Source: Nemertoderma westbladi (lineage: Eukaryota > Animalia > Xenacoelomorpha). Taken from it: a DNA stretch of 64,000 nucleotides. Both the position numbers and the translations under genes were made by a program. Under the pieces are notes generated by a model that was not told the DNA's origin, did no database searches, and saw nothing but the letters and a program-made list of their open reading frames with translations. Location of the stretch: contig JAUCBJ010008826.1 in the NCBI GenBank assembly GCA_032718475.1, positions 13,667 through 77,666 of the forward strand, in the 5' to 3' direction. Shown here in pieces: positions 7,857 to 55,130 of this stretch (its first letter is position 1; each line of letters starts with the position of its first letter).

Positions 7857-7870
7857 ATAACAGATATACG
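7857..7870 (+). promoter_or_regulatory. Putative self-priming primer-binding site
   Basis: ATAACAGATATACG directly abuts the LTR end and is the exact reverse complement of CGTATATCTGTTAT at 7131-7144 inside the LTR. No TGG tRNA-type PBS. Confidence 0.7.
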
Positions 7871-8138
7871 CTTCTTTATTGCAACGTAGGCAATAAAGCT
7901 GAAGTACCGGCCAACCGGTACCCAATAGGCCTGACTACCTAACCACCCGGACCGGTACTTACAGCAGTACAGGTACAGCAGTATTATTTCGATTGTGATA
8001 TTGTATACCGGTAGGCTGTTTAAGAGATTAGGGACTGTACACCCCTTGTTTCTTTTGGAGCTTACTTATTTCTGTCAGGTTTTATTTATTTGTAGGTTAA
8101 TATTGAGCAGAAGACGTGTAAGCCTGCTCAGATTATAC

Positions 8139-16607: not shown

Positions 16608-18065
16608 CATCGTCTGGAGTGGGTGTGTGACTATATTATTTTATATTCTTATTATTTTATATTTATGTATGTATTATTATGTAATTTTATTATAATCATT
16701 TTCTTTAATTTTATTTAGTAGAATGTTATTTTAGCGATTATTTAGTAGATTAGTGCAATATATATTAGTGTTTATTACTTAATTACTTATATATTATATA
16801 TTTACAGCGACGGCGAGAAATAATTCTTTTTCTCTTTCCTTACTGTCCGTGTTACATTACAAATACGTAACTACAGTAAGATGAAATATCCGTACTTATT
16901 AAAGTACAATAAAGCCACTACTATATTCAAGTATTATTGGTAGGCAGAGTATTAGGAATGCAAAGTTCAGATCCTCGTGTCTCGGCTAAACCAAGCTCTG
17001 GGTAGACCTTGGAAACGACTTGCCTCTTCACACTGACATTGCTTCGTGCGATATTGCTCTTCTACTTTATATTAAATAATACATATAGTAGCGTGATGTC
17101 CCTCTAACAGTAGCGTGAAACGCAAATAAATCTGTTAAACCTTTTGACCATCTGTAATTCTAGTCGATTAAGATATCGCGGCACCCACCGATATACTTGA
17201 AAGACAAATTCTAGAATCAGTGGTTAACGTCCCCAGACAAGTTCTGGAATAAACTGGTGCCCATCCTAAATATTAATTATTAATATTTACAAAATCTGTC
17301 AAATTTTAGATCCTTTAAAATTCTAGTCTATTAAGATATCGTAGCACTTACCGATATTCTTAAAAAGACCAATTTCCTAGAATCAAGGATCCTAGTCCCC
17401 AGACATGTTCTGGAATAAAATTGTGTCTATTTAATATTAAATAATAAAATTTACGGGAATAAATTTAAATTCATATTTTAATGAATTTGATAAATTGTCA
17501 TTTTTATGCAATTTATAACATTCCCAAAATTCCATAAATTAATAGATCATGGGAGCGGAGATTCACCCTATTAAGTATATTAGTGTGCGAGAATCTCCAA
17601 TATGTAGTCAATAGCCGATAAAATTCATAAAATCATGTATAGAGAGGATATTGACCATTAAAGAATTACTATTAAATAGCATCCCAGATCTGTATGCATG
17701 AGAATTACCCTAATTCTACCGCTAGCTTTCCATAATGTCACCATGGCAACAACCACGCTAGAATTAGAAGTGAGTCCAAAGAACAATAAAGCTTGCCCAT
17801 TGAATAGCATAAGGAATAAAATAGCACACTACTAGTATCCCAGGATACCCAATAATAACGTGGCATTCTGGAAGGCACTGACTAATGGACAAATGGCCCG
17901 AATGTGTGCGATTTGTGACAGTTGTGTGGATTTTGTGCGTTTATAGGTGAATGTTACTACTAAAGTGTGTTTACAGTAGCGAGTCGCAATTGTGAAAGTA
18001 GCCCTAACTCTCCAGTAAGAACCTGAAGTAAATCTAAGCCTTTGGGACGGACGGTGGAGTGACTC

Positions 18066-18136
18066 GCGCTGGTTGTTGTAGTCGTTGTGCAGCTACGACG
18101 TTGGCGATAGGCACATCGGCGAAAGTACACCAGCGC
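18066..18136 (+). ncRNA. Conserved 71-nt RNA hairpin upstream of the accessory ORF (copy A)
   Basis: Outer stem GCGCTGGT/ACCAGCGC plus a 17-position inner stem. Compensatory changes relative to 41829-41899. Confidence 0.6.
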
Positions 18137-18236
18137 TGAGGATCTTGCGCTGTCCGGGGGCTGAGAGGGGTAGGCAGCGACGCTCGCTAGCCTAAATATA
18201 AACTCATTATAATATTGATAAACTCATATAGCAGAT

Positions 18237-19593
18237 ATGACTGAGTTGATAGAAGATGATCTTGGTATCAGGGAGCGATATACTCTACCTTTACAAACGT
18301 TTGTTGATAGCTTGATATGCGGCGACGCTGGTCCAACTACTACAGAGGACGATGGTCGTTATATCGAACCGCCAATGTCCCAGGAGCAACTTACGCGTGA
18401 ATTGGACTATAGAAACTTCACCGCTCGCTATACGCATCGTAATGGTATGCATATGGACTTCTTAACTACTGGTCATCCTATCGATTTACACGATATGGAC
18501 GATGTCGACACCGAAAGGGAAATGGTACTGTTTGAGTATCCTACCCAGCGGAGTCGGAATGATAAACTGAAAATCGAATGCGAAAATTCTATTCGAAATC
18601 GACTCGAAAGAGAAGACATTAAAGAACCGGATAAACGCGGTAACTCCAACGTATATTTGGAATTCTTGAGAGAAACATTGTAAAACCGAATAAATATCAC
18701 CCGCGTTTCCCCTACAAGATGTGCGTCTTTGGTATTATTGCAATGAATGCCCAAGACCCAACCAACAAACGGAAAGACATAAACATCCGTAGAGACGTTG
18801 CTTTAAACACGGTTACTCGCTATATTTACGGGAGTTTCGAGCGAAACTTGTTCGATGTATCACCTACGCTCGCTCGATTCAAACAATCCTTAAATAAACC
18901 TATGATCAGAGTTCCGGAATACTCGGTCAGACCTCCTCATTCCCTAGTTAGACCTCAGACTCTTGATCCTAATAGTATCATGGATCCTCCCGAACTGTAC
19001 TCACTGTTCAAAGATCTAGTGCTACCCGAACAGTTAGTCGGTGGCACTCCGGTTGTGGGCTCCCTAAATATTCGCCCATCTTACCTAGTCGGATTGGGAC
19101 GCGGACATCTAATATCGTCATTCAACCGTATCATCGTCCCTGTTTAACCCGATACAACCTGTCACCGAAGCGGAGGAAAGAGTTGTACGAAACGCGTTGG
19201 ACACTATTCGTCAAAAGATCGGAAAATGAACCTACAATTGTTTAGAGAAACGTAAATTGCAGCAGCAAGTCCAAGCAGTAAACGAATTAATTTTATCTCA
19301 GTTCGATCAGGAAATTCAGAATCTCTAAGAAGATATCGAACTTGGACGACCCTATTCTCTGCAAGAGTTTTGGACAAACGCATCCAACGATAAGCAGAGG
19401 AAAATCAGCTCGAGGAGAAGCATATCGAAATGGACGAGACATCGACCGTAACCCTAAACCTTCAGATGCAATTGTATTGCACCCTTTACCCAGGAGTTAT
19501 AGCCCTCCTAGTAAAGTGGCTCGCCCCAAAGAGAAAAGGACTCTTGCTAGCCTCAAAAAACTGCGTAAACGCCGTCCGCGTAAGAAAGACTAA
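18237..19593 (+). pseudogene. Deleted and frameshifted remnant of accessory ORF3 in copy A
   Basis: The start MTELIEDDLGIRERY... and the end ...KKLRKRRPRKKD both match copy B. There is a small deletion near 18680 and a ~2.7-kb deletion near 19440 that removes the exonuclease and knuckles. Confidence 0.88.
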
Positions 19594-19662
19594 CTGTTTA
19601 GAGTATTTTTATATTTTAGAAACTGTGATTTTTTATATTTTATAGACTTAAATCCCATTTTC

Positions 19663-19671
19663 TGGGAGCGG
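19663..19671 (+). promoter_or_regulatory. Short polypurine tract before the 3' LTR
   Basis: TGGGAGCGG immediately precedes the TGT of the 3' LTR. Same sequence in copy B at 37397-37405 on the minus strand. Confidence 0.65.
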
Positions 19672-20837
19672 TGTAAAAGCTTTTGCGGAATTAGCCAGTT
19701 ATTTTCCCCGTAAAGTACTCTGTAGTTGGTTTAACAGGCAAAAAAGGCCGTATCCTTACTGTACTGGTGTTTTAGTGGACATAAAAAGCCATTTATTCTG
19801 TATGTGTACTTTAGCGGACATAATTAGCAATTCTATGACGCAATGCGCTAGATCCTCTTGAAACAGTGTAGTTACTATGACGACAGCTAACAGCTGAGCT
19901 GTACACGTGTAGCTTTTTCCTTGTTCTCTGGTGTTTCTTTGTTCGGTCAACCAATCAGAGCGATTCTCCTGCTTTTTGTACAGAAACCTCCGGGAAATCG
20001 CGCAATGCATTATGGGTCAATGTTTACATTTTGTCCTGAGCCCAGAAGACCGGCTTTTGGAATCTCTGTGTTTTCAGTCTTTAGCCCAACATTAGTAGGC
20101 TTAATTATAGAACGTATATCTGTTATCTCACTCACCTAATCATATTGTCAACTACAAACACCGCATTTTTACTGCTATTTACTGTCGGTTATTCATTATA
20201 TCAGTGATGGAATATTATTATATTTGGAATACCGATAAATAATTACAAAACCCTCAATCTTCTTGATATACTGAAGGTAAGAGAGACCGGTTACATATAA
20301 CGATTGCGACTTACATTAAAGTGGTTTTGAAGTGAATCTAATGCTATTTCATAGGCACTACATGTATTGGTTGTTGTTCTCTTTATATGTGACTAAAATT
20401 AGTGAAGGTCGGCAGATCGGTGTGCAGCATTGTGCAGTATTGTGTGTGATTGTGACTGATAACAAAGCATCTCCTAAAGAATGCGCCATATACGTGAATC
20501 TATAGCCATCCCGTTGTGTCTAGTTTAAGTCATAACTCTGTTTACATATTTAGAGCGCCACGTCCTAAAGGAACTGTTAATATTTCCTGAAAGTGAATAA
20601 TATTTGTCAGAGATTATATATTACGATCAATCGAATAATACAGTAGGCCTACACCGCAATACGGTTAGGCTTCCGAATCCAGTCTCCCGGGTATATCCAG
20701 CGGGTGAATGGTCGCGCATAGACTGGCTTTGGCTAATGTAGTGTATGAAATACTCGTCATAGGCTAAAGACGATTCATTATCTAGGAGACATCCCAATTT
20801 GGCAGGTTAAACTGCTAAAGGTCTAAAAGCGCGAACA
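19672..20837 (+). repeat. 3' LTR of copy A
   Basis: Direct repeat of 6690-7856. Confidence 0.95.
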
Positions 20838-36243: not shown

Positions 36244-37396
36244 TGTTCGCGCTTTTAGACCTTTAGCAGTTTAACCTGCCAAATTTAGGTGTCTTTTAGG
36301 TTATAAATCGACTTTAGCCTATGACGAGTATTTGATACACTACATTAGCCGAAGCCAGTCTATGCGCGACCATTCACCCGCTGGATATACCCGGGAGACT
36401 GGATTCGGAAGCTCTGACCTTATTGCGGTGTAGGCCTACTGTATTATTCGACTGATCGTTAATATATAATCTCTGACAAATATTATTCACTTTCGGGAAA
36501 TATCAACAGTTCCTTTGGGACGTGGCGCTCTAAGTATGTAAACAGAGTTATGACTTACACTAAACACAACGGGATGGCTAATGATTCACGTATAAAGCGC
36601 ATTCTTTAGGAGATGCTTTGTTATCTGTCACAGTCATGCACACTACCGCACAATGCTGCACACCGATCTGCCGACCTTGACTAATTTTAGTCACATATAA
36701 AGAGAACAGCAACTGACACATGTAGTGCCTATGAAATAGCATTAGATTCATTCAAAACCAATATAATGTAAGTCGCAATTGCTATATGTAACCGGTCTCT
36801 TACCTTCAGTATATCAAGAAGATTGGGGTTTTATGATTATTTATCGATATTATCCAAATATAATAATATTCCATCAACTGATACAATTAATAACCGACAG
36901 TAAATAGCAGTAAATAATGCGGTGTTTGTAGGTGACAATATGATTTGAGCATGTACTGGTTTGATATGGTTTGATTTGCAGTGTGATAGGATAACAGTTA
37001 TACGTTTCTATGATCAAAGCCTACTAATGTTTGGCTAAAGCCTGAAACACAGAATAATTCTAAAGCCGGTCTTCTGGCATCAGGAAAAAAGGTAAACATA
37101 AACCGTAATGCATTGCGCGATTTCCCGGAGGTTTCTGTACAAAGAACATGAGAATCGCTCTGATTGGTTGACCGAACAAAGAAACAAAGGAAAAGTTACA
37201 CGTGTACATATCAGCTGATAGATGTCGTCATAGTAACTACACTGTATCAAGAGGATTTTGGCTTATTGCGACATAAAATCGCTAGTTATGTCCGCTAAAT
37301 TACACATACAGAAGAAATGGCTTTTTATGTCCGTTAAAACACCTACAGAGTACTTTGCGGGGAAAATAACCAGCTAATTCCGCAAAAGCCTTTACA
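36244..37396 (-). repeat. 3' LTR of copy B
   Basis: Direct repeat of 53938-55130, lacking one ~41-bp unit. Confidence 0.95.
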
Positions 37397-37474
37397 CCGC
37401 TCCCAGAAAATGGGATTTAATTCTATAAAATATAAAAAATCACAGTTTCTAAAATATAAAAATACTCTAAACAG

Positions 37475-40400
37475 TTAGTCTTTCTTGCGCGGACGGCGTT
37501 GACGCAGTTTTTTGAGGCTAGCAAGAGTCCTTTTCTCTTTGGGGCGAGCCACTTTACTAGGAGGGCTATAACTCCTGGGTGAAGGGTGCAATACAATTGC
37601 ATCAGAAGGTTTAGGATTACGGTCGGTGTATCCGCCGGTCGAGGTACCTGGTTGATCGATATCAACTTCAGAGGAGCGAGGTCTAACGGCCTTTAGGGCG
37701 TGTCTTAGGACAGCAGCTCCTACTGGTCCCTGACGAGTCATCTGGACGATAGTGGTAGGTGGACCGTGAGTGGTGAGAAACTTCCTCGGTTTAATGGTTC
37801 TTTCCAGCTCGCGTTCTCAGGCTCGATATTCGTAGGGCCATCGATGTACTTCCTGTAACTCAGGGTGCAAGTTGATAAATAAATCGCCATACTCAGGGTC
37901 TTGACGGATGAAATTGATCAAATGGTATGAATTAATATCGTTAGGATTGACGTTCCTGAGATATTTTCGAACAAATTTGGTGGAAATACACTCACCAACA
38001 CACTTCATTAGTTCGTAACTCGGTGTGCGTGTTTTTTGTTCAACAGACGCGAATAGATAAGGATGGAACGCGTAAACTCCTTCGTAGGCGCGTCCAGGGT
38101 AATAGCGATGGCGGGACTCACAATGTAAATCCGCATTCGCTTCCCAAGCTCGGATGTAGCGCAGGGTAATCATCTCATCTACGCTTTCCAGATCGCGGTT
38201 AAAAGGGCAATCATAACTGGCATGTCCTTTAAGTTGACAGTGGTGGCATTGAGTCATAAATTGGGGGCAGACTGCGAAAATGTGCGAGTTATTGAGTCTG
38301 CAATACGCACAATAGATCTCCATCATCGGTTGTTCATGGAAATAGGAGCAGGGTACGTCTGAGTCCATAGGGGTGAAATGATCTCTCTATGCGCATAATC
38401 GGCAACGTTTTCGAGAAACATAGTTGGCGTGCCGATAATCATATGCGGTGAGACATTGTGGACCTTGATACCATTCCAAGACGTAGTCGTTATCGCTGCT
38501 CCGGGGCGCTGTAGGCTGAATCTCCTCAGATTCTAAGCATATTGGTTCGTCTTCCAATTGCATAGCTGAGGTAGGTGCGGCTGTCTCCGCAAGCGAACCC
38601 ACTGTCTGAACTTCCACGACGGAATAACCCGTGGGTATTCGAGGTCTTTGTATAACAGATGAATGTAAGTTCTGTATACAAACGTCCTTGAAAAGGGCGA
38701 ATCCTGCGCTGTCTAACTTCTCTGCAGCTGAGTCTCTTAGGCTGAGTTTGGTCAGAGCGCGGTCCTTGAACTGACTATCAACGTTACGGAACGGAGTCAG
38801 AAAGCGCCTGAAACATTCGAAGCGGATGAATTTATTGTGTTCATCTAGCTTGGCGATTTTGGTTCCAAGTATTAAGGGATGGGCGCGTATGGTACGACTG
38901 CACACATCGGCTAGCCAACCAGCAAGTGCGGCATTTTCAAAGATCATGTATATAGCTAAGGAGGGACGAAGTGGAACGCTCATAAAGCTATACACGGCGC
39001 CAGGTGCGGTCAATGGTCTGTCAAAGTATAATCGAGAATAATGATCTCCATATACTTGTTGGTAGTTGATAGGATTTCCAACCTTGAAATTCCATCCGTA
39101 TTCTTGAAAGGCAAGATGTCCGATGGAGGTTCGTTGTACTTTAGTAATGCCGCTGGGTGTATTTGCATACATAGTGCAGAAGAAACCTCAGCCTTCTGCC
39201 CAGGGAGCAATCAGCTGAGTATCGACGAAAGGGTATGGAATGTTCTCCATGTTCCGAAAGTCGTTTTGGAGATCTCTGTAAACAGCTGAGCCGATTTTAA
39301 GGATTCTTTCTTTAAACAACATCTCGAGCACGGGCTGGGGTAACATCGATCCATCGATACCCATGGCCGATTTGCGCTCGGTGTCGGTGACGTAACGCTG
39401 CGCGATTTCGAATTGTCCATGTCGGAGTTTCTTTTGTATCTCGGTAAGGGTCTCAAAAGAATAATCAATCACATCGGAACACGCTCGAGTAAATACGTGG
39501 GTAGAACCAGGTAGTCCTCGTATATGTATCATGCGCGTAGTTCCCAGTTCTCCAACCGGAACGCTACCTTCGTTATCGTAAGTGACAACTCCATACATCT
39601 CGATAACGTTAAGAGTCTCATTCCACTCTTTAGAGGCGTTTTCTAGAGTCATTCCCACTGGATGCCACAAGGTAGTGCATTCGCTAGCATTAGGTAGATC
39701 TCTATACTTTAAATATTGTGTAGTATATGTTTCTACATCTCCATATCGTTGTATTCTTTCCTCCTCGGATAACACGTCGAGATTCCAGTGTACTAATCGA
39801 GTTTTGATGAATCCATCAAGATTATACGGAGGTATTGTCTCTTTCTCTATTCTGGAAACATTATAGGGTTTTCGAAATGAGTTTACTTTGACTAACTGAT
39901 CCAGATGTTTCTGCAGTTGTTCGACTTCGACAAGATCGAGAGGATTTATTAGTGGTAGAAACCTCAGACTATGTGTAGGATCTTCCGGTTTTACCATGTA
40001 ATATTGCATTAGATTGACATAATAAGGGTGATCTTTGATCCCATAAAACGAGTTCAGTAAAGGTCTAGCGCGTATGTTAACCTCGTGTACCATACGACGG
40101 ACAAGATCCGCTCTATTGTCCGGAGGTTCAACGAGTATACCATCGACACGAGCGGCCTCGATTGGCGGACGTTGCAACATGGGAGCGTCAGTGATAAGAT
40201 CTCGAGATCTTAGGTTGATATCAACCGGTTGAGGCTGTGCCGTGGCGAAGAGTTTGTCTCTGAAATGGGGAACCATCGAAGGATGGATGATGGTTTTAGA
40301 ATAGAGATCCGTCATAAGGATTTGAGCTTCTGGCTGGGCTAAAGCTGCTTCTTCTCTCTCATCCATTTCTATGTGTTTCTCCTCGAGCTGATTTTCCTCA

Positions 40401-41728
40401 GCTTGTTGTTGTAAACGCTCGTCTAGGAACTCTTGTAGAGAGTAGGTTCGTCCACGTTCGATGTCTTCCTCGAGATTCTGGATTTCTCTATCGAACTGAG
40501 GTAAAGCTAATTCTTTCACCGCTTGGACTTGTTGCTGCAATTTGCGTTTCTCTAAACAATCGTAAGTTCCTTTTCCGATCTTCTGCCGAATAGCGTCTAA
40601 CGCGTTTCGTACAACGCTCTCTTCGACTTCGGAAACGGGTTGTATCGGGGTTAAGCCTGGACGGTTGTACGGGTTAAACGGCGATATTAGATGACCGCGT
40701 CCTAATCCGGCTAGGTAGGGTTGGCGAATATCTAGAGAGCCCACTACCGGAGTGCCACCGATTAATTGTTCGGGTAACACAAGATCTTTAAATAGTGAGT
40801 ACAGTTCAGGGGGATCCGTTATACTATTAGGATCAAGCGTTTGAGGTCTCACTGAGGAATGAGGAGGTCTGACCGAGTATTCCGGAACTCTGATCATCGG
40901 TTTATTTAAGGATTGTTTGAGTCGAGCGAGCGTAGGTGATACGTCGAACAGGTTTCGCTCGAAACTCCCATAAGTATATCGTGTAAAACTGTGTTTAGCG
41001 CAACGTCTCCGCGGATGTTTATGTCTTTCCGTTTGCTGATTGGGTCTAGGGCATTCATCACAGTAATACCAAAGACGCACGTCCTGCAGGGGAAACGCGG
41101 GTGATCGTTCTCCAGTTTTACAATATTCCTCCATCTGCTCGAAGCTATCTGGGACGACAGGTAGCGGTCGATCGGCGGTAAGATACATCATAGTAAAATA
41201 GAGTCGTTTGAGTTCTATCATAGGGTCATGATGTATACCTTGAGGATATCGAGTTTCTAGATTTTGTTGACTGGCAATATTGAGATATGTTTCTCTCAGG
41301 AATTCCAGATAATCGTTGAAGTCGCTGCGTTTATCCGGCTCTTCAACGTCTTCCCTTTCGAGTCTGTTTCGAATAGAATTCTCGTGTTCTATTCTCGGTT
41401 TATCGTTCCGACTCCGCTGGGTATGATATTTAAATAAAACCATTTCCCTTTCGGTGTCTACATCGTCCGTATCGTGTAAATCGATAGGATGGCCAGTAGT
41501 TAAGAAGTCCATATACGTACCATTACGATGCGTATAGCGAGCGGTGAATTTTCTATAGTCCAATTCACACGTAAGTTGCTCCTGGGACATTGGCGGTTCG
41601 ATATAACGACCATCATCCTCTGTAGTAGTTGGACCAGCGTCGCCGCGTATCAAGCTATCAACAAACGCTTGTAAAGGTAGAGTATATCGCTCCCTGATAC
41701 CAAGATCATCTTCTATCAACTCAGTCAT
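37475..41728 (-). pseudogene. Accessory ORF3, ~1417 codons with three in-frame stops: putative DEDDy 3'-5' exonuclease plus zinc-knuckle protein
   Basis: ORFs 39188-41728, 38387-39172, 37817-38368 and 37475-37741 share one frame, and the gaps between them are open. Exo-like motifs GVVTYDNEG, LPQPVLEMLFKERILKIGSAVYRDL, FVDTQLIA, SIGHLAFQEYG and LAIYMIFENAA. Knuckles CRLCA*RDH, CAYCRLNNSHIFAVC and CHHCQLKGHASYDC. Confidence 0.8.
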
Positions 41729-41828
41729 ATCTGCTATATGAGTTTATCGATATTATAATGAGTTTATATTTAGGCTAGCGGGCGTCGCTGCCTACCCCTC
41801 TCTGCCCCCGGACAGTGCAAGATCCTCA

Positions 41829-41899
41829 GCGCCGATGTACCGTCGTCGCTGTGTTTTTCGCCAATGTAGTAGCTACACAACGACAACGATAACCGGCAC
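41829..41899 (-). ncRNA. Conserved 71-nt RNA hairpin upstream of ORF3 (copy B)
   Basis: GUGCCGGU/AUCGGCGC outer stem and a fully paired 17-bp inner stem UAUCGUUGUCGUUGUGU/ACACAGCGACGACGGUA with G-U pairs. Confidence 0.6.
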
Positions 41900-43366
41900 A
41901 AGTCACTCCACTGTCCGTCCCAAAGGCTTAGATTTACTTCAGGTTCTTGCTACAGAGTTAGGGCTACTTTCACAATTGCGACTCGCTACTGTAAACACAC
42001 TTTAGTAGTAACATTCACCTATAAACGCACAAATTCCACACAACTGTCACAAATTGTACACATCCGGGCCATTTGTCCGTTAGTCAGTGCCTTCCAGAAT
42101 GCCACGTTATTATTATGTATCCTTGGATACTAGCAGTGTGCTATTTACTCGATATGCTATTCAATGGGGCAAGCTTTCTATTGTTCTTTTAACTCACTTC
42201 TAATTCTAGCGTGGTTGTTGCTATGGTGACATTATGGAAAGCTAGCGGTAGAATTAGGGTAATTCTCATGCATACAGATCTGGGATGCTATTTAATAGTA
42301 ATTCTTTAATTGTCGATATCCCCTTTATACATGATTTTATGAATTTTATCGGCTATTGACTATATATTGGAGATTCTCGCACACTAATACACTTAATAGG
42401 GTGAATCTCCGCTCCCATGATCTATTAATTTATGGAATTTTGGGAATATTATAAATTGTATAAAAATAACAATTTATAAAATTCATTAAAAGATGAATTT
42501 AAATTTATTCCCGTAAATTTTATTATTTAATATTAAATAGACACAATTTTATTCCAGAACATGTCTGGGGACTAGGATCCTTGATTCTAGGAAATTGGTC
42601 TTTTTAAGAATATCGGTAAGTGCTACGATATCTTAATAGACTAGAATTTTAAAGGATCTAAAATTTGACAGATTTTATAAATATTAATAATTAATATTTA
42701 AGATGGGCACCGGTTTATTCCAGAACATGTCTGGGGACGTTAACCATTGATTCTAGAATTTTGTCTTTCAAGTATATCGGTGGGTGCCGCGATATCTTAA
42801 TCGAATAGAATTACAGATGGTCAAAGGGTTTAACAGATTTATTTTGCGTTTTACGCTACTGTTAAAGGGACATCACGCTACTATATGTATTATTTAATAT
42901 ACGGTATGAGAGCAATATCGTAAGAAGCAATGTCAGTGAGAAGAGGCAAGTCGTTTCCAAGGTCTACCCAGAGCTTGGTTTAGCCGAGACACGAGGATCT
43001 GAATTTTGCATTCCTAATACTCTACTTACCAATAATACTTGAATATAGTAGGAGCTTTATTGTACTTTAATAAGTACGGATATTTCATCTTACTGTAGTC
43101 ACGTATTTATAATGTAATACGAACAGTAAGGAAAGAGAAAAAGAATTATTTCTCGCCGTCGCACTAAATATATAATATATAAGTAATTAAGTAATAAACG
43201 CGAATATATATATGGCACTAATCTACTAAATAATCGCTAAAATAACATTCTACTAAATAAAATTAAAGAAAACGATTATAATAAAATTACATAATAATAC
43301 ATACATAAATATAAAATAATGAAACAAATATAAAATAGTATACTCATACACCCACTCCAGATGCTG

Positions 43367-46300
43367 TTATGTTGGGGAGTCCCTAGATGTTTGTTGGATT
43401 AGGGAGGTGGTCATGGGAAGAGTATCTTGCCTTCCATAGTTTCCGGAGAGTTCTCTGTCTCTTTCCAGTAAACATAAACGACCAACTGGGCGATTGAGCT
43501 GCTGTGTCTCGAAGACAATTCCCGGTTTCTTAAAGTTACGTCGCATGACGACGAGTTCTACCGATCGCACTAAACCATCATCCGAGATGTGAGTCTCGAT
43601 GATACGACCTGTCTGCCACCGCTTACGTGGAAGATCTGAATCCACAATAAGGACCATGTCTCCAGCGCTGACGTTTTCTTGCTGCTCAAACCACTTAGTT
43701 CGAAGTTGTAGATAATGTGTGTAATTTGCAGATAATGTTTTTCGAAATGGTCAGCGAAACGACGGGATAACAACTGCATAAGTTGCCAAGTTTGCCGGCA
43801 GTATTCGTCTCCGTCTGTGATTTCCGATCGTGGGAGCATGGCTACAGGTTTCTTCAGTAGGAAGTGCGCGGGTGTTAGCGCTTCCAGGGAATCGGGACTC
43901 GATGAGACTGGCATAAGCGGTCTCTCGTTGAGATAGGCGGCGATTTCCTCCATTAACGTCCGCAAAAGTTCGTCGGTGAGATACGCGCGGCACGGCACTA
44001 TGAAGTGAAATGCGGTCTTCACGCTCCTGATTAATCTCTCCCAACTTCCTCCCCACCAAGGGGCGTCGGCGGCGTTGAAGGTTCAGCTAGACGCTGTTAC
44101 CCTTAGCTGATCGTCCACCTGTCTTTGGTTCCAATCTTTGACGTAAGCCTTGATTTCATTGTTGGCACCAATGAAGTTCGTTCCCTTATCAGATCTCATC
44201 GTGTTACTAGTTCCAAAGCGAGCGATCTGTTGTCGTAAGCTCAATAGGAAGCTGTTGGTAGATAAATCGTTCACCATATCGAGATGGATAGCTCTACAAG
44301 TCATACAAACAAAGATGACACACCATCTCTTGACTATAGTCCTAGCACGATATACTTCAATAGGGCCAAATAAATCTACACCGGTATTAGTAAAAGGTGG
44401 TTCATAGAAGCTTACTCGTTCCCTAGGTAATTCTGCCTCTCGCTGTGTTAAAGGCCTACTGAATGCTTTCCTACAGGGTATGCAGTTCCTAAGAACTTGG
44501 TTCAGAGCTCTACGGGGTTTATAAAAATAATAGCGAGTTCGAATTTCGCTAAGAACTCGTTCTCTACCAGCATGATAAAGATTGCTGTGAACATCTACAA
44601 TCATCTTGATTTGTATTTCCAGATTTCTAATGAGTATGGGAAACTTAGTATCAAAGGATAATGGAGCATTAATTAATCTTCCTCCAACACGTATCAACCC
44701 ATCTATCATTGTGCTAGAGAAACGATCCCTTAAGCGCATCTGTGGATTTCTCAACAACAGGAAGTACTTATCGGAATCCTCATAGCATTGCAGGAGTCTC
44801 AGCATCTGCTTATTGGTTTCTTCATGCTCCTGATAACTGATCTTCTCCTTCAGAAACCTGTCGGATATCTTATATTTGGGAAGATCTTTAACAACATGAA
44901 CCTGCACAGATGTCAGTGGAGCGGTATCACTAGTGGTCTTCGTCCTGGAGTAGTGATGATGAAAACATCGCTTTAAATATGTAATGGCTTTACAGAGCCG
45001 ATTCCAGGAACTATAATGATGTATCGCTCTCTGCAGAAGAGGTGAGAGTCCTTGCGAGACGTCTGGTATTCCAGATTTCCAATCCCTCTCTCTGATTTCC
45101 ACAACAGACTTATTTGTAGCTGTGGGTTTTGGATCCAAAGCGTCGTCTCCGGAAGTGTGTAGTACAGACAGATCTACCACGGGTTTAAATAACTTCGATT
45201 TACTCGCCCGAGTTTTAGGTTTGACTTTCCCCGCTCCCTTGGCCTGTCTAATCTCCGCCGTAGTAAGATGAGGAGGCCATTCATCCACTTCTTTGCTTAG
45301 GAAGTCGGGTCCACCTAACCAGTATGGAGTATCTATCAGTTCTTGTGGAGTTGCTCCCCTGGATGCGATGTCTGCTGGATTAATCGTTCCGGGGCAATGT
45401 CTCCATTGATCCATCTTCGTGCGACTAAGTATAATGGCTACTCTGTTGGTAACGAAGACGCTGAACTGACAGACTTCATTGGTTATATACTCCAACACGA
45501 GTAAAGCATCGGTCCAATAGACAGTTTTCTCCAGTGGATATTCGATCTGTTCTGTTACATTCCGGCCGATGGCTGTAGCGTATAGAGCCGCTTTTAACTC
45601 CGCTCGAGGAACTTTCAACTTGTTGTTTATCAATGCCTTAGAGGTAACCAAGGCGACTTTGATTCCATCTGGAGTTTCCACTCTCAGGTAGGCTACTATA
45701 CCTATTCACATGTCGCTGGCGTCTCCAAACACATGGAGTTGATAGGAATACGTAGGGAGAACATGACCAAAATATGAACGGGAAATTATAAAGTTCTCGA
45801 TGGCTGGTAGAGAATCTTCCCATTTCATCCACTTCTTTAATAGTTCTCCCTTAAGTGGATCGTCCCATGAGTGGTTTTCAAGCCACATTTGTTGTACTAA
45901 ACTCCGAGCAATCAATATAACTGGGCTAATAAATCCCAATGGATCGAAATAAGTGCTCAGGATACTTAAACAAATCCGTTTAGTCCGAACTGGATTATCT
46001 CGCTGTTTGAGCTGGAAAAACAGGATATCTCTCTCTGTGTCCCATTTCAAACCAAGTGTTTTGGTTTCTGGAAGATCGTCTTTGATTAGGTCTAGATCTT
46101 TCGCTCCTCGATCTTCTACCGGAATCGATTCCAGAAACTCACGGGAGTTGCTGGTGAATTTAGTTAATCGAAATCCACCTCTTTTTAAGCACTCTACCGT
46201 TCCTTTGGCGACATCAATGGCTTCTTCCACCGATGGAAGGGACTTTAAATTGTCGTCCATGTATATATCCCGTTTGATGTTGTCGATCACCTCTTTAGAG

Positions 46301-49300
46301 AAGGCGTCCCGGTTGTCATCAGCAGTGGTGCGCACCACTGAGCAGGCGTTTGAAGGGCTTGAGATGATCCCAAAAGCCTGGATGGTCATCCAATACTCCA
46401 CCGGTTTCTGGTTGAGGTCTCCTTCAGGCCACCACAGAAATCGTAGGCTGTCTCGATCCCTATCCAGCGCCTTGACTTGTAAGAACATGCCTTCTATATC
46501 GGAGGCAGAAACGATTTAATATTGTCGTAATCTTAAGAATATTCCCAACAAGGATTGGAGTAAGTTGGGTCCTGATAACAACTCGGAATTAAGGGATTGG
46601 CCCATGTAGAGGGCGGAGCCGTCAAATACTACCCGTACTTCATGGGGTTTACCGGGTTTGGGAACGTAATGATGTGTTAGATAGTACGTTCTCTCAGTTA
46701 TGGTGTTTCTTCCGGTACTCGCTCCGCATATCCCTTGTTAATAAATTTCTTCAACTGAGTCTGGTACATTTCTTTAGCTGAAGCATTTGCCGTAAGGCAT
46801 CGATGTAGTTGAGCAATTCTTTTCTCCGCCAAGGGTCGGTTGTTTATGAATTTTGGTTCTTGCTTTCGGAATGGTAGACCGATTTCATATCTACCTTGAT
46901 CTTTAAGAAAACGTGTAGTTGTCTCCTGGATCTGCTTGGCTCTTTCTTCTTCTACCAATAGGGCCTTATCGTAGGAATTGGGCTCTACAGCCTCTTGAGT
47001 AAAGAATCGCACGGTGTGTTCATCCCGAGTCTTCACGTTATAGCGCTCTATTACGTCATTCAGTTCGTCGTTATAGTCGACTTGTCCTGATGGACGAATG
47101 TGTTGACATAGGTTCACTTGGTTTTGCCAAGTCTCGTTTTCCGTAAGGAGGTTGATGGTATTCTCCTCGTCGAAGAGTTGGTGGATATCGTCATTATCTG
47201 AGGAGTATGGTGTTCCCTCAGTTGGGTCGTCTACCTCACTGATCTCCGCTTCCCATTCACTTACTTGGTATACCCGTTCTTTTGGTAACCTTTCCATGAG
47301 AGTTCTACGGGAAGGGCCAGTAAATTACCAACCTACTCTAGTTCTTCCCGCATAGGCTTGTAGTGGTTGCGGTTGAGCAGGCCGTTTCTCCAATGTCTCA
47401 AGCGCCTCATGCGCATTTTGGCCGATGAGTATTTGCACTCCAGGGTAATATGTGTTGAATCTAGGTATATTAAGCTGCTGGGTGAAATCGTCCTCATCCC
47501 AGTTATAAGGTTCTACTTCGCTGGTAGCGAAGTTCTTTATCGCCACCATTTTTACTGACCTTATACTGTGTTCTCCTAGTTCATCCTGGGGGGTGGACAA
47601 CACACCTACATAATAATCCGCTATTACTGTAGATTTCCAAACCTGCATAATTCCTGACATGTTTAACTTAGTTCGGAACTTGGGTTGTCCAGCAAAGATG
47701 TCTTCGGCAGTTCTTTGTCGATGAATGTCCCTGTGCTACCGGAGTCAAGTAGGGCGTTCACTATATAACTCCTTTCAGGTCCGTGGACCCTCAACTGCAC
47801 TACGGGAAATTCTCGGATTCCTACATTGGAAGTTGGCGCATCTAGGTATATTAAGCTGCTGGGTGAAGTCGTCCTCATCCCAGTTATAAGGTTCTACTTC
47901 GCTGGTAGCGAAGTTCTTTATCGCCACCATTTTTACTGACCTTATACTGTGTTCTCCTAGTTCATCCTGGGGGGTGGACAACACACCTACATAATAATCC
48001 GCTATTACTGTAGATTTCCAAACCTGCATAATTCCTGACATGTTTAACTTAGTTCGGAACTTGGGTTGTCCAGCAAAGATGTCTTCGGCTAGTTCTTTGT
48101 CGATGAATGTCCCTGTGCTACCGGAGTCAAGTAGGGCGTTCACTATATAACTCCTTTCAGGTCCGTGGACCCTCAACTGCACTACGGGAAATTCTCGGAT
48201 TCCTACATTGGAAGTTGGTGCTTTCCAAGATGGTTGTCGGTCAGAAGTAGTTAGGGGGGGCTCGCTGTCGGTGTCCTTTTCGTACGTAAGTGCTTGATAC
48301 ACTGCGGTATTTATCAGGTAACAGGATTCGTTTTCGTCGGAGAATTCGTCCGTATAGAATCCTTCCATCTCAGAACTTTGGTCAGTGTCGTTCACATCAC
48401 TGAATTGGACATGTAGTTCGGACTCACTTACCTGACTCGGGCTGTTTCGTTCGAATTCAGTGTGCAACAAGATATGATGTTTTGCGCCGCACTTTGCACA
48501 CCTTGCGTCGGAGTAACAGGTTCGCCGTTGGTGTCCTTGTCTGAGGCAATTATAACACAACCGCTTATCCCACATGACTTCCCGTCTATCCTTTAATGAT
48601 TTCGTTAGGAATTCATCACACACATTCAAACGGTGGGGCCCGTCACACAGCGCACATTTCGATTTGATGTTACTTACCTTATTTTGAGTGACGTTGTGCA
48701 CACTCGTTCTTTCTTCGGGCTTTCTTACATGAATTCTCTTAGGAGACGTAGGAGGAGTTTTTCTTACCTGTTCTCTCCTGTCATTGGTTCGAGACTTGAA
48801 TTTACTTACGTCTTTAGGCGTTTTGTTGACATAATAAGATCTTTCAGTGTCTTTCCCGCTGTCCTCTTCTTGAGAAGCCTGGCTTTCACCGTCGTCGGTA
48901 TAACACACTGGTGTTACCTTTCTCCTAGAAACGGGTTTCTCACTTACCTTATTTTCCGGTGTCTTCTCTCTGGACTGCTTTAGGAGCTGTAATTTTACTT
49001 CTCCATCTAAGAATGACATGAGATCAGCCATGGTAGGGTCTCGTCGTTGTTGTTCCATCATATATAACACTTTCTTATCCCAGTGAGTACCTACTCCACC
49101 CTTCGGTAAAGTAGAGGCCACGGCTCCAATAACCATAGAACTCTGATATTCATGAGACTTACCTAGCCAATCTAATTGTCTACAGATCTCCTGAATCTCA
49201 TCAGAAAACTCTATAATCCCGCTGCTAATGAACTTTCGGGGGGCTACCAATTTTGCATAGAAATACCTAGCTATGTTATTCCTATTACCATACCTGATGT

Positions 49301-51802
49301 TTAGTGTATCCCAAACTTGTCTTAATCCATCTGGATGTCCAATAAACTTTAACGCCATTAACTTGGAGATCCTTCCAAGCACTCGATGAGGAATCTAAGT
49401 TTCTCTCCGTTAGATAGCACAGAGTTCTGTATGTTATCTTTGTAGTATTCATTAAAAGGTAACCATTTCATCTCATCTCCATTGAACTTGACGATCTCTC
49501 CCACCTTTACCGCTTGACGGGCTTCGGTTCTAGCCATTTGACGTGTAAAACTTTCTTGGGCCATCGTATTATTTAATATCGAGTTATCGGTATATAAATT
49601 TCTCGGATTATTATCAGGTCTATATGGAATATCATTGTCAACAGGTTTATAATTACCCTTAATAGGGTTTTCTATAGGAGTTTCTACTTCACTAGCAGTA
49701 TAGATGTGTGTAGGCTCCACACCTTGCACATGAAATACTTCAGACCTAACAGGTTGACACATTGTTACTGGGGTTGGTGGTATACCCCTTTGGGTATTTA
49801 CTAATTTATCTCTCTCTAATGCGATACTCTGCTGCACTTCTTGCAACTCTAACCTACTTTCCCTTACCGTGCCCTTGAACTGCTGAACAGTTCCTTCCAT
49901 CTCCCGGACCTGCTGAGAGGAGCACTTACGGTGTTCCATCAGCTGCCCGAGCAGGAGACCCATCTCCCGTCGTCCCTCAGCTACCCACTCGACCGCCGAA
50001 GCGGGAGTCGCCAACGTAGTAGCGGGCGAGCGAGAGACGACGGGCGATAAATTCTTGATATCTCGCTCAGCGTCCAGGACGGGTTCGGACTCGTGAACAG
50101 TCCTACTGGGCATAGGTAGTTTAGTACTGTGCAAAGGGAATTTAGAGGTAGGTTCTGGGAGTACAGGTGTCTCTATCACCGAAGGGGTGGCTTCGAGAAC
50201 AGGCCTAATTATTTCAGGCTCATCTACTATAGTAGGGAGTCTTTCTATTTTAATTATTTGGTCTATGGGTTCTGTACTACCTAAGTCTGTGCAAGCTAGT
50301 TGCCTTCTAACAGCTGGGGGCAAGTCAGGCAATTTCTGACTGTGAGGCATTCTTCTACGTCTGCTTAGACGAGATCTATTTCCTCCGCCTTCAGGATCGT
50401 TGGTATCGCCTTCATCAGATGATGTATATCCCTGTCTTTTAGGAGTAGATCGACTCATCATCTGCATTTGACTAGCTGTTAACTGTTTATTTATGCAGTC
50501 TTGATTCTCTTGGATATTTTCCAACTCTAGTTGGGTAGTCTCTTCAGACGCTCTTCGTTCTGCTTCTGCCACTGCTATCTTTCTTTCTGCTTCTACTGCT
50601 GCTGCTGCCGCTTTTGCCTCTGCCGCTGCCGCTTTTCTTTCCGCTTCTGCCGCTGCCATTGCCGCTGCTGCTGTCTTTCTGTCTTCTATACGTTTTTTCT
50701 TGACTTGTTCTTCTTGGACCCTAGCGATGCGGAGTCTTTCATCAAATTTAGCTTGGTTCGCAGCTAACATTTCCGCATCTATTGCGTCCAACACAAGCTT
50801 AGCTCCTTCACTATTAGGGCGAAGTCCAGACAACCGTCTCCTCAACTCTTTGTCACCTAGAAATCGTTGATAGTCTGACAGATAGATGTCAATAGCATCC
50901 CTCTTATGCGGTTTCTCTGCTGTCGCTTCACTTTCCACTTGGAAAAGGTAGCGTCTGTTGATTCTCCATGGGTTGAGCACTCAGCCAGCTGAGATTTCCA
51001 CTGGGCCGTTCCTTGAACTTTGAGACCCACCCGCTGAAACCAAGTCTTTACGGCAACTTGCAACGACGTGTCTTGTCTTCTTTTCGAAGCCTCCTCAAAG
51101 GCCGATAGGATTAGTCTGATTCTTAGAATTCTTTCTCGAACTTGATAAAGCAGCTCTCCCTGCTCTTGAGGTCCTTGGGGTTGTCGAACCAGTTGTTCCT
51201 CTAATCGCTCCAAAGAGCTGAAGAATCCCTGTACGTATCCTGCTGCCGACCTCTTCCACACAGCTGGATCGCTGGTGTCTTTTGACACTCCCATCCTGTA
51301 TATGTCTTCCCAGGCAGCTTCCGATAAGTCAAACGGGAGTCCGGGTCCGGGGAAGTTCCATTGCGACTCGACAATAGACTTCAGTTCTTCCCTTGTGTAT
51401 CCCGCATAACTATCCTTGGTCGATCGCTTACTTCTCGCCCAATCAATCTGGTGTTCCTCCACCGCAATCAATACCCTAATGAGTACGGCTGCAGGAAGGA
51501 TGAGAAGGGGATCCGAATAAACCGCATCTGCCATCTTTGGGCCGCTGAGAAATAAGTTCTCGGCTCGAGTGTTGCTGCTGTTCAACAGCTGCCTCTTGGT
51601 CCCGCTTGAACTGAGCTCGAGTGCCTATGATAGACCTACGGTGTTGGACTAGCCTAGGGTCTGATACTACTACTGGAGGGATGATCTTTCTTACAGTAGG
51701 AGGTGAGTTGAACTTCGGTCTCACACATTCCACACTCCTGTCTGGGTCACAGATGGTTGTATCTAGGAGACTGTCTGACAGGTTTTGCTTTGTGTCAGAC
51801 AT
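43367..51802 (-). pseudogene. gag-pol: BEL/Pao gag-pol polyprotein of copy B, broken by several frameshifts/stops and a duplication
   Basis: Gag knuckles CALCDGPH/CYNCLRQGH/CAKCGAKHHILLH. Protease ALLDSGS. RT IYMDD and FRLTKFTSNS. RNase H LHVFGDAS, PRAELKAA and YWTDA. Integrase H..H...CIPC, GVDLFGP, SDKGTNF and LTPAHFL. Confidence 0.95.
47461..48220. repeat. ~381-bp tandem duplication of the protease region in copy B
   Basis: CTAGGTATATTAAGCTGCTGGGTG at 47461 and 47842. The ALLDSGS motif appears twice. Confidence 0.9.
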
Positions 51803-51939
51803 GTTTGTTTGTACAGTTGAATGCCTACTGCTATATTACAGTTAAAGCAAGTCTAGTAATTCAGTATCAACTGTTAGCCTAGTAATTAATTACTGATACT
51901 GTTACTCAGTGTAACGTGATATATATATAATATATTAGA

Positions 51940-52435
51940 ATACCTGTATACACTTATAGTATATATATAAGTATTATTACAGACTAGATTTGTCACAGAA
52001 TACCGGTATATAATTTCAGCGCAAATATATAGCAATATATAATAAGCCTATCGTGAATACCGGTATACAGCTTACACTTATAGTATATATAAGTATTATT
52101 GCAGACTAGGTTTGTCACAGAATACCGGTATATAATTTCAGCACAAATATATAGAAGTATATAATAAGCCTATCATAAATACCGGTATGCAGCTTACACT
52201 TATAGTATATATAAGTATAATTATAGACTAGAATTAATTACAGAATACCGGTATATAATTTCAGCACAAATATATAGAAATATATAATAAGCCTATCATA
52301 AATACCGATATGCAGCTTACACTTATAGTATATATAAGTATAATTATAGACTAGAATTAATTACAGAATACCGGTATATAATTTCAGCACAAATATATAG
52401 AAATATATAATAAGCCTATCGTGAATACCGGTATG
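51940..52435. repeat. ~120-bp tandem repeats in the 5' leader of copy B (about 4 copies; fewer in copy A)
   Basis: Recurring CAGAATACCGGTATATAATTTCAGC...ATAATAAGCCTATC. Confidence 0.8.
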
Positions 52436-53925
52436 TCAATTATTTTAGAATAATTGAATTTCTGAATTTTAGGGTTACTTGGTTACTTTACTTTACTTTA
52501 TTACCGTTATTTAAGCAGTGGTCCAACTGATATTAAGACCTAATTGATGTATGACAGGCCTACTATTTTATAAATCGGTTTCAGTTGATTTATAATATAT
52601 ATACCCGTATAATGGGTTTTTGTCAATGTTTGAAATAAATGTTATTATTTCTGGGAAAGAGTCACCGCACAGAAGCTGTACGCTCTCAGTGAAGTGCTAC
52701 AAAACAAATAAAACAAATAATTCTAATTTGCCTAAGTTACTTATTACTACAAATTACGTACAATACGGGGTGAGATTACAATCTCTAAATAAACACAAAA
52801 ATTATACGTACAAATTTTTAGGGGTAATTTTACAAGAAGTCTACAAACCAGCCTAACAAAGGGTTAGAATATCTGGTTATTACAACGGACAGGATACTAC
52901 GGTATTTGAAGATAATAAGCAGTAGTAAATATATTGCGTTGTCCAGATAGAAAAAATACCACCGTCTGACGACTTATAGCCGTATCGCTATAAGTACTAC
53001 GTTATGTTTCACGGAGTGTTCCTACCTAGAAGTTAATTACCGCAGCCTACCAGAGCCAACGTGCCTATTAACCACACAAATATACTGCCTACACACTAAT
53101 TACCTTCGGAAAGCACTGTACACTAAACCCTCAATTAGGTACAAGCACTTATACAACAAATAACCAGCCGTTAAAAATACTTGTACAGCTAAAAGAACCA
53201 CGGTATCTGCCGGAGTGACCAAAGCATAAAATCTCCAGTCTTTACCTACGCCAAACAGCCCTGATGTAGTACCGGGGTTAATTTAACTATAACGGTATGT
53301 ATAACAAGCACAATTACTGTAGGAATAAACTTGGGGTATGAATGTTGCGAATAATCGCATAAACTCTGAATAATAAATATTACGCTACCCTTACAGACTA
53401 CACAAACAAAATACAGACCAAACGCTGGCAGACTACTATCAAGCCTAAATAAACCACAGTATATGCAGACTCCGAAATGGTTAGTTAGTATGCGTTCTAA
53501 CCGAGTAGTACGACTTATTCTTTCGGGGGGATTTACCTTACAGCTCTGGAAGCCCACCACGTTCCTAACTAGTACTTTATCGGACATACACTCTACACAC
53601 ACTGCAATCTCTTCAGACTTAACAACAGTCAGACAACAGTCCAGCCTACAAATTACCTGTACAATCTGAGCAGGCTTACACGTCTTCTGCTCAATATTAA
53701 CTTACAGATAAATAAAACTGACAGAAATAAATAAGCTACAAAAGAAACAAGGGGTGTACAGTCCCTAATCTCTTAAACAGCCTACCGGTATACAATATCA
53801 CAATCGAAATAATACTAGTACGTGTACTGCGGTAAGTTCCGGTTCGGGTGGTTAGGCAGTTAGGCCTACTAGTTACCGGTCGACCGGTACTTTAGTCTTT
53901 ATTGCCTACATCGCAATAAAGATCC

Positions 53926-53937
53926 TATAACTGTTAT
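53926..53937 (-). promoter_or_regulatory. Putative self-priming PBS of copy B
   Basis: Element-sense ATAACAGTTATA abuts the 5' LTR and is complementary to the LTR segment at 54684-54695. Confidence 0.7.
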
Positions 53938-55130
53938 TGCTCGCGCTTTTAGACCTTTAGCAGTTTAACCTGCCAAATTTAGGTGTCTTTTAGGTTATAA
54001 ATCGACTTTAGCCTATGACGAGTATTTGATACACTACATTAGCCGAAGCCAGTCTATGCGCGACCATTCACCCGCTGGATATACCCGGGAGACTGGATTC
54101 GGAAGCTCTGACCTTATTGCGGTGTAGGCCTACTGTATTATTCGACTGATCGTTAATATATAATCTCTGACAAATATTATTCACTTTCGGGAAATATCAA
54201 CAGTTCCTTTGGGACGTGGCGCTCTAAGTATGTAAACAGAGTTATGACTTACACTAAACACAACGGGATGGCTAATGATTCACGTATAAAGCGCATTCTT
54301 TAGGAGATGCTTTGTTATCTGTCACAGTCATGCACACTACCGCACAATGCTGCACACCGATCTGCCGACCTTCACTAATTTTAGTCATATAAAGAGAACA
54401 GCAACTGACACATGTAGTGCCTATGAAATAGAATTAGATTCATTCCAAAACCAATGTAATGTAAGTCGCAATTGCTATATGTAACCGGTCTCTTACCTTC
54501 AGTATATCAAGAAGATTGGGGTTTTATGATTATTTATCGATATTATCCAAATATAATAATATTCCATCAACTGATACAATTAATAACCGACAGTAAATAG
54601 CAGTAAATAATGCGGTGTTTGTAGGTGACAATATGATTTGAGCATGTACTGGTTTGATATGGTTTGATTTGCAGTGTGATAGGATAACAGTTATACGTTT
54701 CTATGATCAAAGCCTACTAATGTTTGGCTAAAGCCTGAAACACAGAATAATTCCAAAGCCGGTCTTCTGGCATCAGGAAAAAAGGTAAACATAAACCGTA
54801 ATGCATTGTGCGATTTCCCGGAGGTTTCTGTACAAAGAACATGAGAATCGCTCTGATTGGTTGACCGAACAAAGAAACAAAGGAAAAGTTACACGTGTAC
54901 ATATCAGCTGATAGATGTCGTCATAGTAACTACACTGTATCAACAGGATTTTGGCTTATTGCGACATAAAATCGCTAGTTATGTCCGCTAAAGTACACAT
55001 ACAGAAGAAATGGCTTTTTATGTCCACTAAAACACCGGTACAGTAAGGAAACGGTTATTTATGTCCGTTAAAACACCTACAGAGTACTTTGCGGGGAAAA
55101 TAACCAGCTAATTCCGCAAAAGCCTTTACA
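53938..55130 (-). repeat. 5' LTR of copy B
   Basis: TG...CA ends. Direct repeat of 36244-37396. Confidence 0.95.

Follow-up and report, generated by a model that had tools for sequence, protein, structure and literature searches.

A long hairpin before the third open reading frame of a BEL/Pao retrotransposon, with an apical motif repeated before gag: a candidate cis-acting RNA signal

The Host Element and Its Two Copies

The window analysed here is a stretch of 64 kb of soft-masked eukaryotic DNA that contains two large repeats in opposite orientation. Each repeat is a copy of the same LTR element, designated copy A and copy B:

6690..20837, forward strand: copy A, 14.1 kb, a deletion derivative, with LTRs at 6690-7856 and 19672-20837 and the target duplication CATCG
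36244..55130, reverse strand: copy B, 18.9 kb, with LTRs at 55130-53938 and 37396-36244 and the 5-bp target duplication AAAGC

The ORFs of the element match the Pfam families Peptidase_A17 (E 7.7e-22), DUF1759 (Gag; E 1.3e-11), and Integrase_H2C2 (E 2.9e-07), and this set of Gag, Pao peptidase, and integrase zinc-binding matches assigns it, on sequence grounds, to the BEL/Pao LTR retrotransposons (Belpaoviridae). Its gag carries CCHC motifs, and the protein clusters closest to the integrase frame are mostly from arthropods. The LTRs of both copies measure approximately 1.15-1.19 kb and have TG...CA ends. BEL/Pao LTRs are described as 0.2-1.2 kb long, and the elements as 4.2-10 kb long, a range that both the 14.1-kb and the 18.9-kb copy exceed (PMC8742986). 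Members of the family are also expected to have an 18-nt primer-binding site for tRNA-Arg or tRNA-Gly after the 5' LTR; no obvious site starting with TGG is present directly 3' of the LTR end in either copy.

The gene order comprises a 3.7-kb leader, ORF0, a spacer, gag-pol, a second spacer of about 1.6 kb, ORF3, and the 3' LTR. Compared with copy B, copy A lacks approximately 1.8 kb and 1.4 kb of pol and 2.7 kb of ORF3, the greater part of both, and it retains gag, ORF0, the spacer, and both of the hairpins described below; its gag and ORF0 are open, while the gag of copy B is split. The two LTRs of each copy are 98.9% (A) and 99.4% (B) identical, from which both insertions are judged to be young. 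Nearly all the differences between copies A and B therefore predate insertion and arose in replicating lineages. These differences are unevenly distributed along the element.

Several other features of the window were noted. An LTR-like third copy lies alone at 3932-5117, in the orientation of copy B. Where it aligns with the copy B LTRs it is 95-96% identical to them, and it may represent a solo LTR or the terminus of another element. The 3.7-kb leader of copy A (7858-11572) contains tandem repeats of 290 bp (8133-8712) and 142 bp (10273-11124), and arrays of 27 bp and 84 bp are found just outside its 5' LTR (5992-6691). About 40 nt past the end of the 5' LTR, both copies hold a cluster of short palindromes (7895-7965 and 53845-53915), whose local fold is one of the strongest in the window and scores better on the antisense strand.

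ORF0 and ORF3

Besides gag-pol, the element carries two long reading frames:

11573-13186, forward strand: ORF0, 537 aa, upstream of gag, open in copy A, dN/dS 0.32 between copies
39188..41728, reverse strand: ORF3 of copy B, 846 aa, dN/dS 0.12-0.26 between copies

ORF0 belongs to no Pfam family and is an extra gene that has not been described for BEL/Pao elements. ORF3 starts at an ATG at 18238 in copy A and at 41728 in copy B, where its frame runs on to 37817 for about 450 more codons, past in-frame stops at 39188-39190 and 38387-38389. Two CCHC knuckles are located near the end of this extended frame (37817-41728, reverse strand). The initial annotation had proposed the hairpin upstream of ORF3 as a binding site for knuckles of the ORF3 product; the knuckles are thus present in the copy B frame, but only past the two in-frame stops and beyond the 846-aa ORF.

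No Pfam family was matched by ORF3 or by the knuckle frames. No relative of ORF3 was found in 5.8 billion clusters at near length, in 1.84 billion representatives, or in a protein-based scan of viral contigs, and none of these searches returned an env-like or any other match. A possible identity as a 3'-5' exonuclease was rejected, as its atlas score was only 0.80, a value that shuffled proteins reach one-third of the time.

Synonymous divergence (pS) between the copies is 0.11 for ORF0, 0.12 for gag, 0.19 for the first 146 codons of ORF3, and 0.39 further on. The dN/dS ratios of 0.12-0.32 across ORF0, gag, and ORF3 indicate that all three were under purifying selection while the lineages diverged.

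An Extended Hairpin Upstream of ORF3

The spacer between pol and ORF3 holds the hairpin that is the subject of this work (hp1), whose core and extended form have the following positions:

41829..41899, reverse strand: hp1 core of copy B, with an 8-bp outer stem, a 1-nt C bulge, a 17-bp inner stem, and a 20-nt apical part
18066..18136, forward strand: hp1 core of copy A, with 17 of 71 bases different from copy B and 22 of 25 pairs kept
41804..41927, reverse strand: extended hp1 rod of copy B, with 45 pairs in helices of 5, 12, and 28 bp, plus a 4-bp apical mini-helix
18038..18161, forward strand: extended hp1 rod of copy A, with 42 of 45 pairs kept

The core of copy B had been described as having an outer stem of 8 bp and a fully paired inner stem of 17 bp, about 100 nt before ORF3, and both parts of this description were borne out. 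The sense strand folds in this way at -39.4 kcal/mol (z -6.43), a value equalled by none of 200 shuffles, with the antisense strand reaching -18.9 kcal/mol (z -0.63), and the core ends 101 nt before the ORF3 ATG in both copies. The same 71 nt of copy A have a z of only -2.4 on the sense strand, no better than the -2.6 of the antisense strand. The hairpin is non-coding, since the only frame that runs across it is a stop-to-stop frame of 59 codons in copy B with no counterpart in copy A.

Folding 30 nt more on each side, a stretch of 131 nt, places the core within a longer rod, with basal helices of 5 bp and 12 bp, a 3 x 3 internal loop (UGA/GAU) that is identical in both copies, and a 28-bp upper stem that contains the reported hairpin. 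This stretch folds at -66.2 kcal/mol in copy B (z -8.37) and at -58.8 kcal/mol in copy A (z -3.52), the antisense strands are weaker than the sense strands by 19-31 kcal/mol in both copies, and the rod persists when folded within 401 nt of context. The minimum-free-energy fold of copy A by itself shifts the upper stem, so that adopting the structure shared with copy B (-52.8 instead of -58.8 kcal/mol) costs 6 kcal/mol. G-U pairs account for 9-10 of 49 pairs per copy (10 of 49 in copy B, apical mini-helix included), or roughly one in five. As a consequence, the palindrome is imperfect at the DNA level, and only the sense RNA pairs fully.

In a fold scan of the 64 kb with 71-nt windows on both strands, only palindromic tandem arrays were more stable, and hp1 is among the three strongest fold sites outside the two array stretches that were excluded. 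The most stable folds of the window belong to arrays of a 22-nt unit (21608-22900 and approximately 3731-3908), which form near-perfect long hairpins on both strands at -46 to -55 kcal/mol. Against Rfam 15, nothing in the window reached the gathering score, and the region 41600-42200 gave no match even with E values up to 10. A covariance model built from the two copies retrieved from the window only those two and generic palindromic arrays.

Divergence and Covariation Between the Copies

According to the initial annotation, copy A differs at many positions and still keeps its pairs, with swaps between C-G and U-A in both stems and G-U substitutions that work only on the sense strand. The comparison of the cores agrees with this account: 17 of 71 bases differ (12 of them by transitions), 8 of 8 outer and 14 of 17 inner pairs are kept, the C-G/U-A swaps affect pair 5/67 of the outer stem and pairs 12/59 and 25/46 of the inner stem, and four one-sided changes go through G-U. 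Differences in the core fall on both arms, six on one and seven on the other (13 of 50 paired positions), and its three broken pairs are all due to transversions. Over the 131 nt there are 21 differences, which correspond to three pairs changed on both sides, seven changes on one side only, passing through or away from G-U, that leave the pair intact, three breaks, and five differences outside pairs, four of these in the apical part and one in the 3' tail. The three extra differences that fall on basal pairs all keep pairing. All six U/C differences are opposite G in both copies, three of them inside two-sided swaps, and 9 of the 21 differences are A/G on the sense strand.

When the differences were placed at random positions, permutation of the 71-nt core gave p values of 0.057 for the pairs kept, 0.013 for at least three two-sided changes, and 0.004 for both together; for the 131 nt, the corresponding values were 0.013, 0.008, and 0.0007. 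With the changed positions held fixed over the 131 nt, the values rose to 0.24, 0.15, and 0.08, a weak result because two transitions across a pair always restore pairing. A shuffle control on the number of pairs was not significant (59 of 500), and in a sliding control 96.7% of cells were paired in register against 38-52% when slid. Because only two copies are available, the covariation between these sequences is suggestive rather than proven. It is probable that selection acted on the pairing of the sense RNA.

The flanks had also been reported to be more conserved in sequence than the hairpin, as is indeed the case, with 4-6% divergence against 24% in the core. The core value of 0.24 falls within the synonymous range of the neighbouring ORF3 (0.19-0.39). 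It can thus be accounted for without hypermutation, and the core does not qualify as a mutational hot spot; the spacer on either side, at 0.04-0.06, shows stronger conservation than synonymous sites do. The picture that emerges from these comparisons is of a stem apparently constrained only to pair, set within a spacer that is constrained in sequence.

Variation Across the Element Family

A view of the family was obtained from the contigs of four sequencing runs at a variant threshold of 10%, which does not provide linked haplotypes and does not replace an alignment. Three runs of one organism contain at least half of the sampled words of the stretch, and small shares are found in a fourth run of that organism and in one run of a second organism; the contigs come from four of these runs. 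Run X4, guessed to be RNA, contributed no more than 6-37 contigs, none of which formed a joint within the stretch. Thousands of short contigs cover the stretch, indicating that the element family is very abundant in the host, with contig depth at its lowest over the apical half of hp1.

Positions 1-24 of the core, which make up the 5' arm, and positions 58-71 have no variant at 10% or more. Of the five stem positions that do have such variants, four keep pairing. The change of U to C at position 25 (29-42%) and that of A to G at its partner, position 46 (40-60%), occur at matching frequencies, and positions 54, 56, and 57 vary with pairing kept. At position 50, C makes up about 60% of the family reads when these are weighted by depth, and it breaks the pair with U21. 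The stem states of copy A are mostly rare in the family. In the apical part, the blocks GCUAC and UUGGCG have no variant at 10% or more, while the bases between and after them vary. The initial claim that structure rather than sequence has been kept thus holds within the limits of two copies and of variant tables made at the level of reads, with the covariation itself only suggestive.

One family copy lacks the hairpin: in run X1, a DNA contig connects 41793 directly with 41901 and so omits all of it together with 35 nt of its 3' flank. A second joint, from 41795 to 41966, was seen in runs X1 and X3. Exact-pattern scans for further copies with two conserved flank stretches gave no match in metagenome, genome, and viral contigs.

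A Second Hairpin with the Same Apical Motif

A second strong hairpin (hp2) is found upstream of gag, and both hairpins present a closely similar 16-nt sequence at their tips:

13518..13596, forward strand: hp2 of copy A, -40.9 kcal/mol, z -2.95, ending just before the gag ATG at 13599
49966..50044, reverse strand: hp2 of copy B, -50.8 kcal/mol, z -5.17
41858..41873, reverse strand: hp1 apical motif of copy B, GCUACUACAUUGGCGA
18092..18107, forward strand: hp1 apical motif of copy A, GCUACGACGUUGGCGA
13539..13554, forward strand: hp2 apical motif of copy A, GCUACAACGUUGGCGA
50008..50023, reverse strand: hp2 apical motif of copy B, GCUACUACGUUGGCGA

In the fold scan, hp2 of copy A is among the three strongest sites outside the excluded arrays, and its counterpart in copy B also ranks high. 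The consensus of the four tips is GCUACNACRUUGGCGA, with GCUAC(G/U)AC(G/A)UUGGCGA in hp1 and GCUAC(A/U)ACGUUGGCGA in hp2, and its GCUA and UGGC can pair as the 4-bp apical helix. A pattern derived from hp1 alone also recovered hp2 from copies A and B, always on the sense strand and with no more than one mismatch, and it matched nothing besides hp1 and hp2 on either strand of the 64 kb, with 0.02 matches expected by chance. Beyond the 16-nt motif, hp1 and hp2 have no similarity. The motif is absent upstream of ORF0, the first ORF. Between copies A and B, hp2 shows one two-sided change, three one-sided changes that keep the pair, and three broken pairs.

A Candidate Docking Signal on the Full-Length RNA

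The explanation that best accommodates these features, although a tentative one, is that hp1 is the core of a sense rod of about 124 nt that serves as a cis-acting docking platform for an RNA-binding protein. A tip shared by two otherwise unrelated long stems points to a reader of that tip. Taken together with the CCHC knuckles in gag and in the ORF3 frame, and with the retention of both hairpins by copy A, such a reader suggests a docking signal for a zinc-knuckle protein, which would mark the full-length RNA; this more specific reading is put forward with the same caution. The long stem would act as a scaffold, constrained only to pair, that presents the conserved GCUAC...UUGGCG apical stem-loop. 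The most plausible reader would be a CCHC domain of the element itself, located in the Gag nucleocapsid or towards the C-terminal end of the ORF3 frame, and its binding would single out the full-length RNA to be selected or packaged. Of the features expected of a packaging signal, the element shows a structure on the sense RNA and a conserved, exposed motif that is repeated. Such a signal would further be expected in the leader, between the splice donor and gag; hp2 stops just short of the gag ATG, whereas the place of hp1 is between pol and ORF3.

Several observations count against a docking signal. Packaging signals usually sit in the leader, and hp1 is located outside it, approximately 10 kb from the 5' end of the RNA. 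Nucleocapsid sites are normally short stem-loops, for which stems of 25-45 bp would be unusual. Further points against it are the weak z of copy A, the availability of only two alignable copies, the break at position 50 in the family, and the three broken pairs against one two-sided change in hp2. Finally, both hairpins are situated just upstream of ORF starts, a position that control of translation fits equally well.

That last point makes control of the expression of the downstream ORFs nearly as likely as a docking signal. Under this alternative, hp1 would be an IRES-like entry site (the initial annotation had listed an IRES or translation element), a shunt structure, or a regulator of a nearby splice acceptor, giving ribosomes access to ORF3, with hp2 playing the same part for gag. 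The positions of hp2 and hp1 ahead of their respective ATGs agree with it, as do the 283-284 nt free of ATG between hp1 and the ORF3 start, the absence of the tip motif upstream of ORF0, the spacer down to the ATG that is more conserved than synonymous sites, and the presence of three long ORFs on the RNA. ATG-free runs as long as this one, however, occur at least seven times in the element, and no known IRES family was matched around the hairpin in Rfam at E up to 10. Moreover, the quality of the hairpins is unlinked to the integrity of the ORFs, with copy B having the better hairpins but a split gag, and copy A a weaker hp2 but an open gag, and a stem of -40 to -66 kcal/mol just before an ATG would block scanning. 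A role in the trafficking of the RNA is rather improbable. In this case a putative host protein would read the rod as a signal for nuclear export or localisation of unspliced RNA, as would suit a rod-like hairpin 3' of pol with invariant internal loops (UGA/GAU) and a motif repeated on one RNA. An element with a downstream ORF probably expressed from a spliced RNA would also require export of the unspliced RNA; in gypsy, the env mRNA is spliced (PMC4276936). No similarity to such elements was found in sequence or in Rfam. Less probable still is a small-RNA precursor, cleaved by Drosha/Dicer or by Dicer-2 into a miRNA- or siRNA-like RNA. Its size and shape broadly suit this role (an upper stem of 28 bp above a lower one of 12 bp, topped by 20 apical nucleotides), and in the family the 5' arm is free of common variants and the apical part is variable. 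The pre-miRNA-like precursor considered in the initial annotation is nonetheless disfavoured, because hp1 and hp2 share the tip and not the arms, the reverse of what is seen in miRNA paralogues. In addition, 13 of the 50 paired positions in the arms have changed between two active lineages, and no miRNA family was matched in Rfam at E up to 10.

It is also possible, although not likely, that the hairpin has no RNA function and is a palindrome made and kept solely by mutation, through template switching inside an inverted repeat, A-to-G editing of the ADAR type acting on double-stranded RNA prior to reverse transcription, or a recombination patch, with the conserved pairs as by-products. Hairpins with seemingly compensatory changes have been reported to arise and persist through template switching (PMC8794818). 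The large share of A/G differences on the sense strand fits editing, given that an A-to-G change in an A-U pair automatically leaves G-U. The divergence between the copies is patchy along the element, and transitions at both partners restore a pair automatically, as the fixed-position p values of 0.08-0.24 reflect. On the other hand, template switching or a DNA cruciform gives Watson-Crick pairs and not the G-U pairs that make up a fifth of each rod. G-U pairs and the bulge stand between the three two-sided changes, so that a single switch event does not account for them, and the core differences are spread over both arms. The six U/C differences are not of the ADAR type, and all are opposite G in both copies. 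The core divergence of 0.24 does not exceed that of the ORF3 synonymous sites, and a second hairpin with the same tip would be hard to obtain by chance.

Other candidates were tried and rejected. A central polypurine tract was set aside because the purine-rich run just 3' of hp1 is unlike the sequence before the 3' LTR. The ATG-free leader of 283-284 nt was considered as a signal in itself and found weak, with similar gaps being common in the element. Relaxation after gene loss was dropped, as hairpin quality does not track the integrity of the downstream ORF. A template-switch signature found no support, since the arm differences bring neither arm nearer to an exact complement and the pairs are rich in wobbles.

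Returning to the docking signal, a broader form of it can be envisaged, which we regard as improbable at present: a modular device, consisting of a stem that needs only to pair and an invariant tip, would stand before each internal cistron as an internal landing pad or switch putatively read by the element's own zinc-knuckle proteins. If so, three long ORFs could be expressed, and the RNA sorted between translation and packaging, from a single transcript.

Implications for BEL/Pao Elements

We know of nothing on cis-acting RNA signals of BEL/Pao elements. Their replication is called poorly understood in the ICTV profile (PMC8742986), and a literature search on the theme returned no description of such a hairpin. 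A hairpin constrained in structure, with a repeated tip, would offer a handle on the selection of the RNA and on the expression of genes downstream of gag-pol, in an element that is very abundant in its host and far larger than the described members of the family. It also holds a lesson on islands of apparent divergence of this kind, as here the core changes at the neutral rate and it is the surrounding spacer that is unusually constrained, so that the island is not a hot spot.

Comparison with Known Systems

The packaging signal Psi of gammaretroviruses contains paired hairpins with a common loop motif. Like these packaging stem-loops, hp1 and hp2 lie on the sense genomic RNA, repeat a loop motif on separate stem-loops, and have stems that are free to covary. 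Moreover, hp2 is just upstream of the start of gag, the element encodes CCHC knuckles, and the hairpins are kept in a deletion derivative. They depart from packaging stem-loops in the much greater length of their stems (25-45 bp), in the location of hp1, which precedes ORF3 some 10 kb along the RNA and is not in the leader, and in showing no similarity of sequence.

In MPMV and IAP, the constitutive transport element and the RNA transport element, respectively, are extended hairpins 3' of pol with conserved unpaired motifs that act in cis on unspliced RNA, and stem-loop localisation signals are known in the RNAs of insect retrotransposons. With the two transport elements, hp1 shares its form of an extended hairpin, its location 3' of pol in a retroelement, and its conserved unpaired motifs. 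It differs from them in having no similarity in sequence or loop layout, in carrying the motif on two hairpins rather than in two loops, and in belonging to another host group. Pre-miRNA hairpins borne by viruses and transposons are also known, and they resemble hp1 in being hairpins of about 70 nt with a variable apical part, here too inside a retroelement. However, hp1 and its paralogue have the tip in common but not the arms, divergence in the arms proceeds at the neutral rate, and no miRNA family is matched.

For control of downstream genes, the closest parallel considered is gypsy from Drosophila, which is described as having two IRES and a spliced env mRNA (PMC4276936). Gypsy is likewise an LTR retroelement with a third ORF that uses dedicated cis elements for its downstream cistrons, comparable to the structure found here upstream of ORF3. 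It belongs, however, to the Ty3/gypsy elements and not to BEL/Pao, and here ORF3 is not env-like and no IRES family is matched. Lastly, the hairpins attributed to template switching (PMC8794818) share with hp1 a cluster of differences in an inverted repeat and apparent compensatory changes. In contrast to them, hp1 has wobble-rich stems, changes on both arms, and an energy that strongly favours the sense strand, a combination that points to the RNA level.
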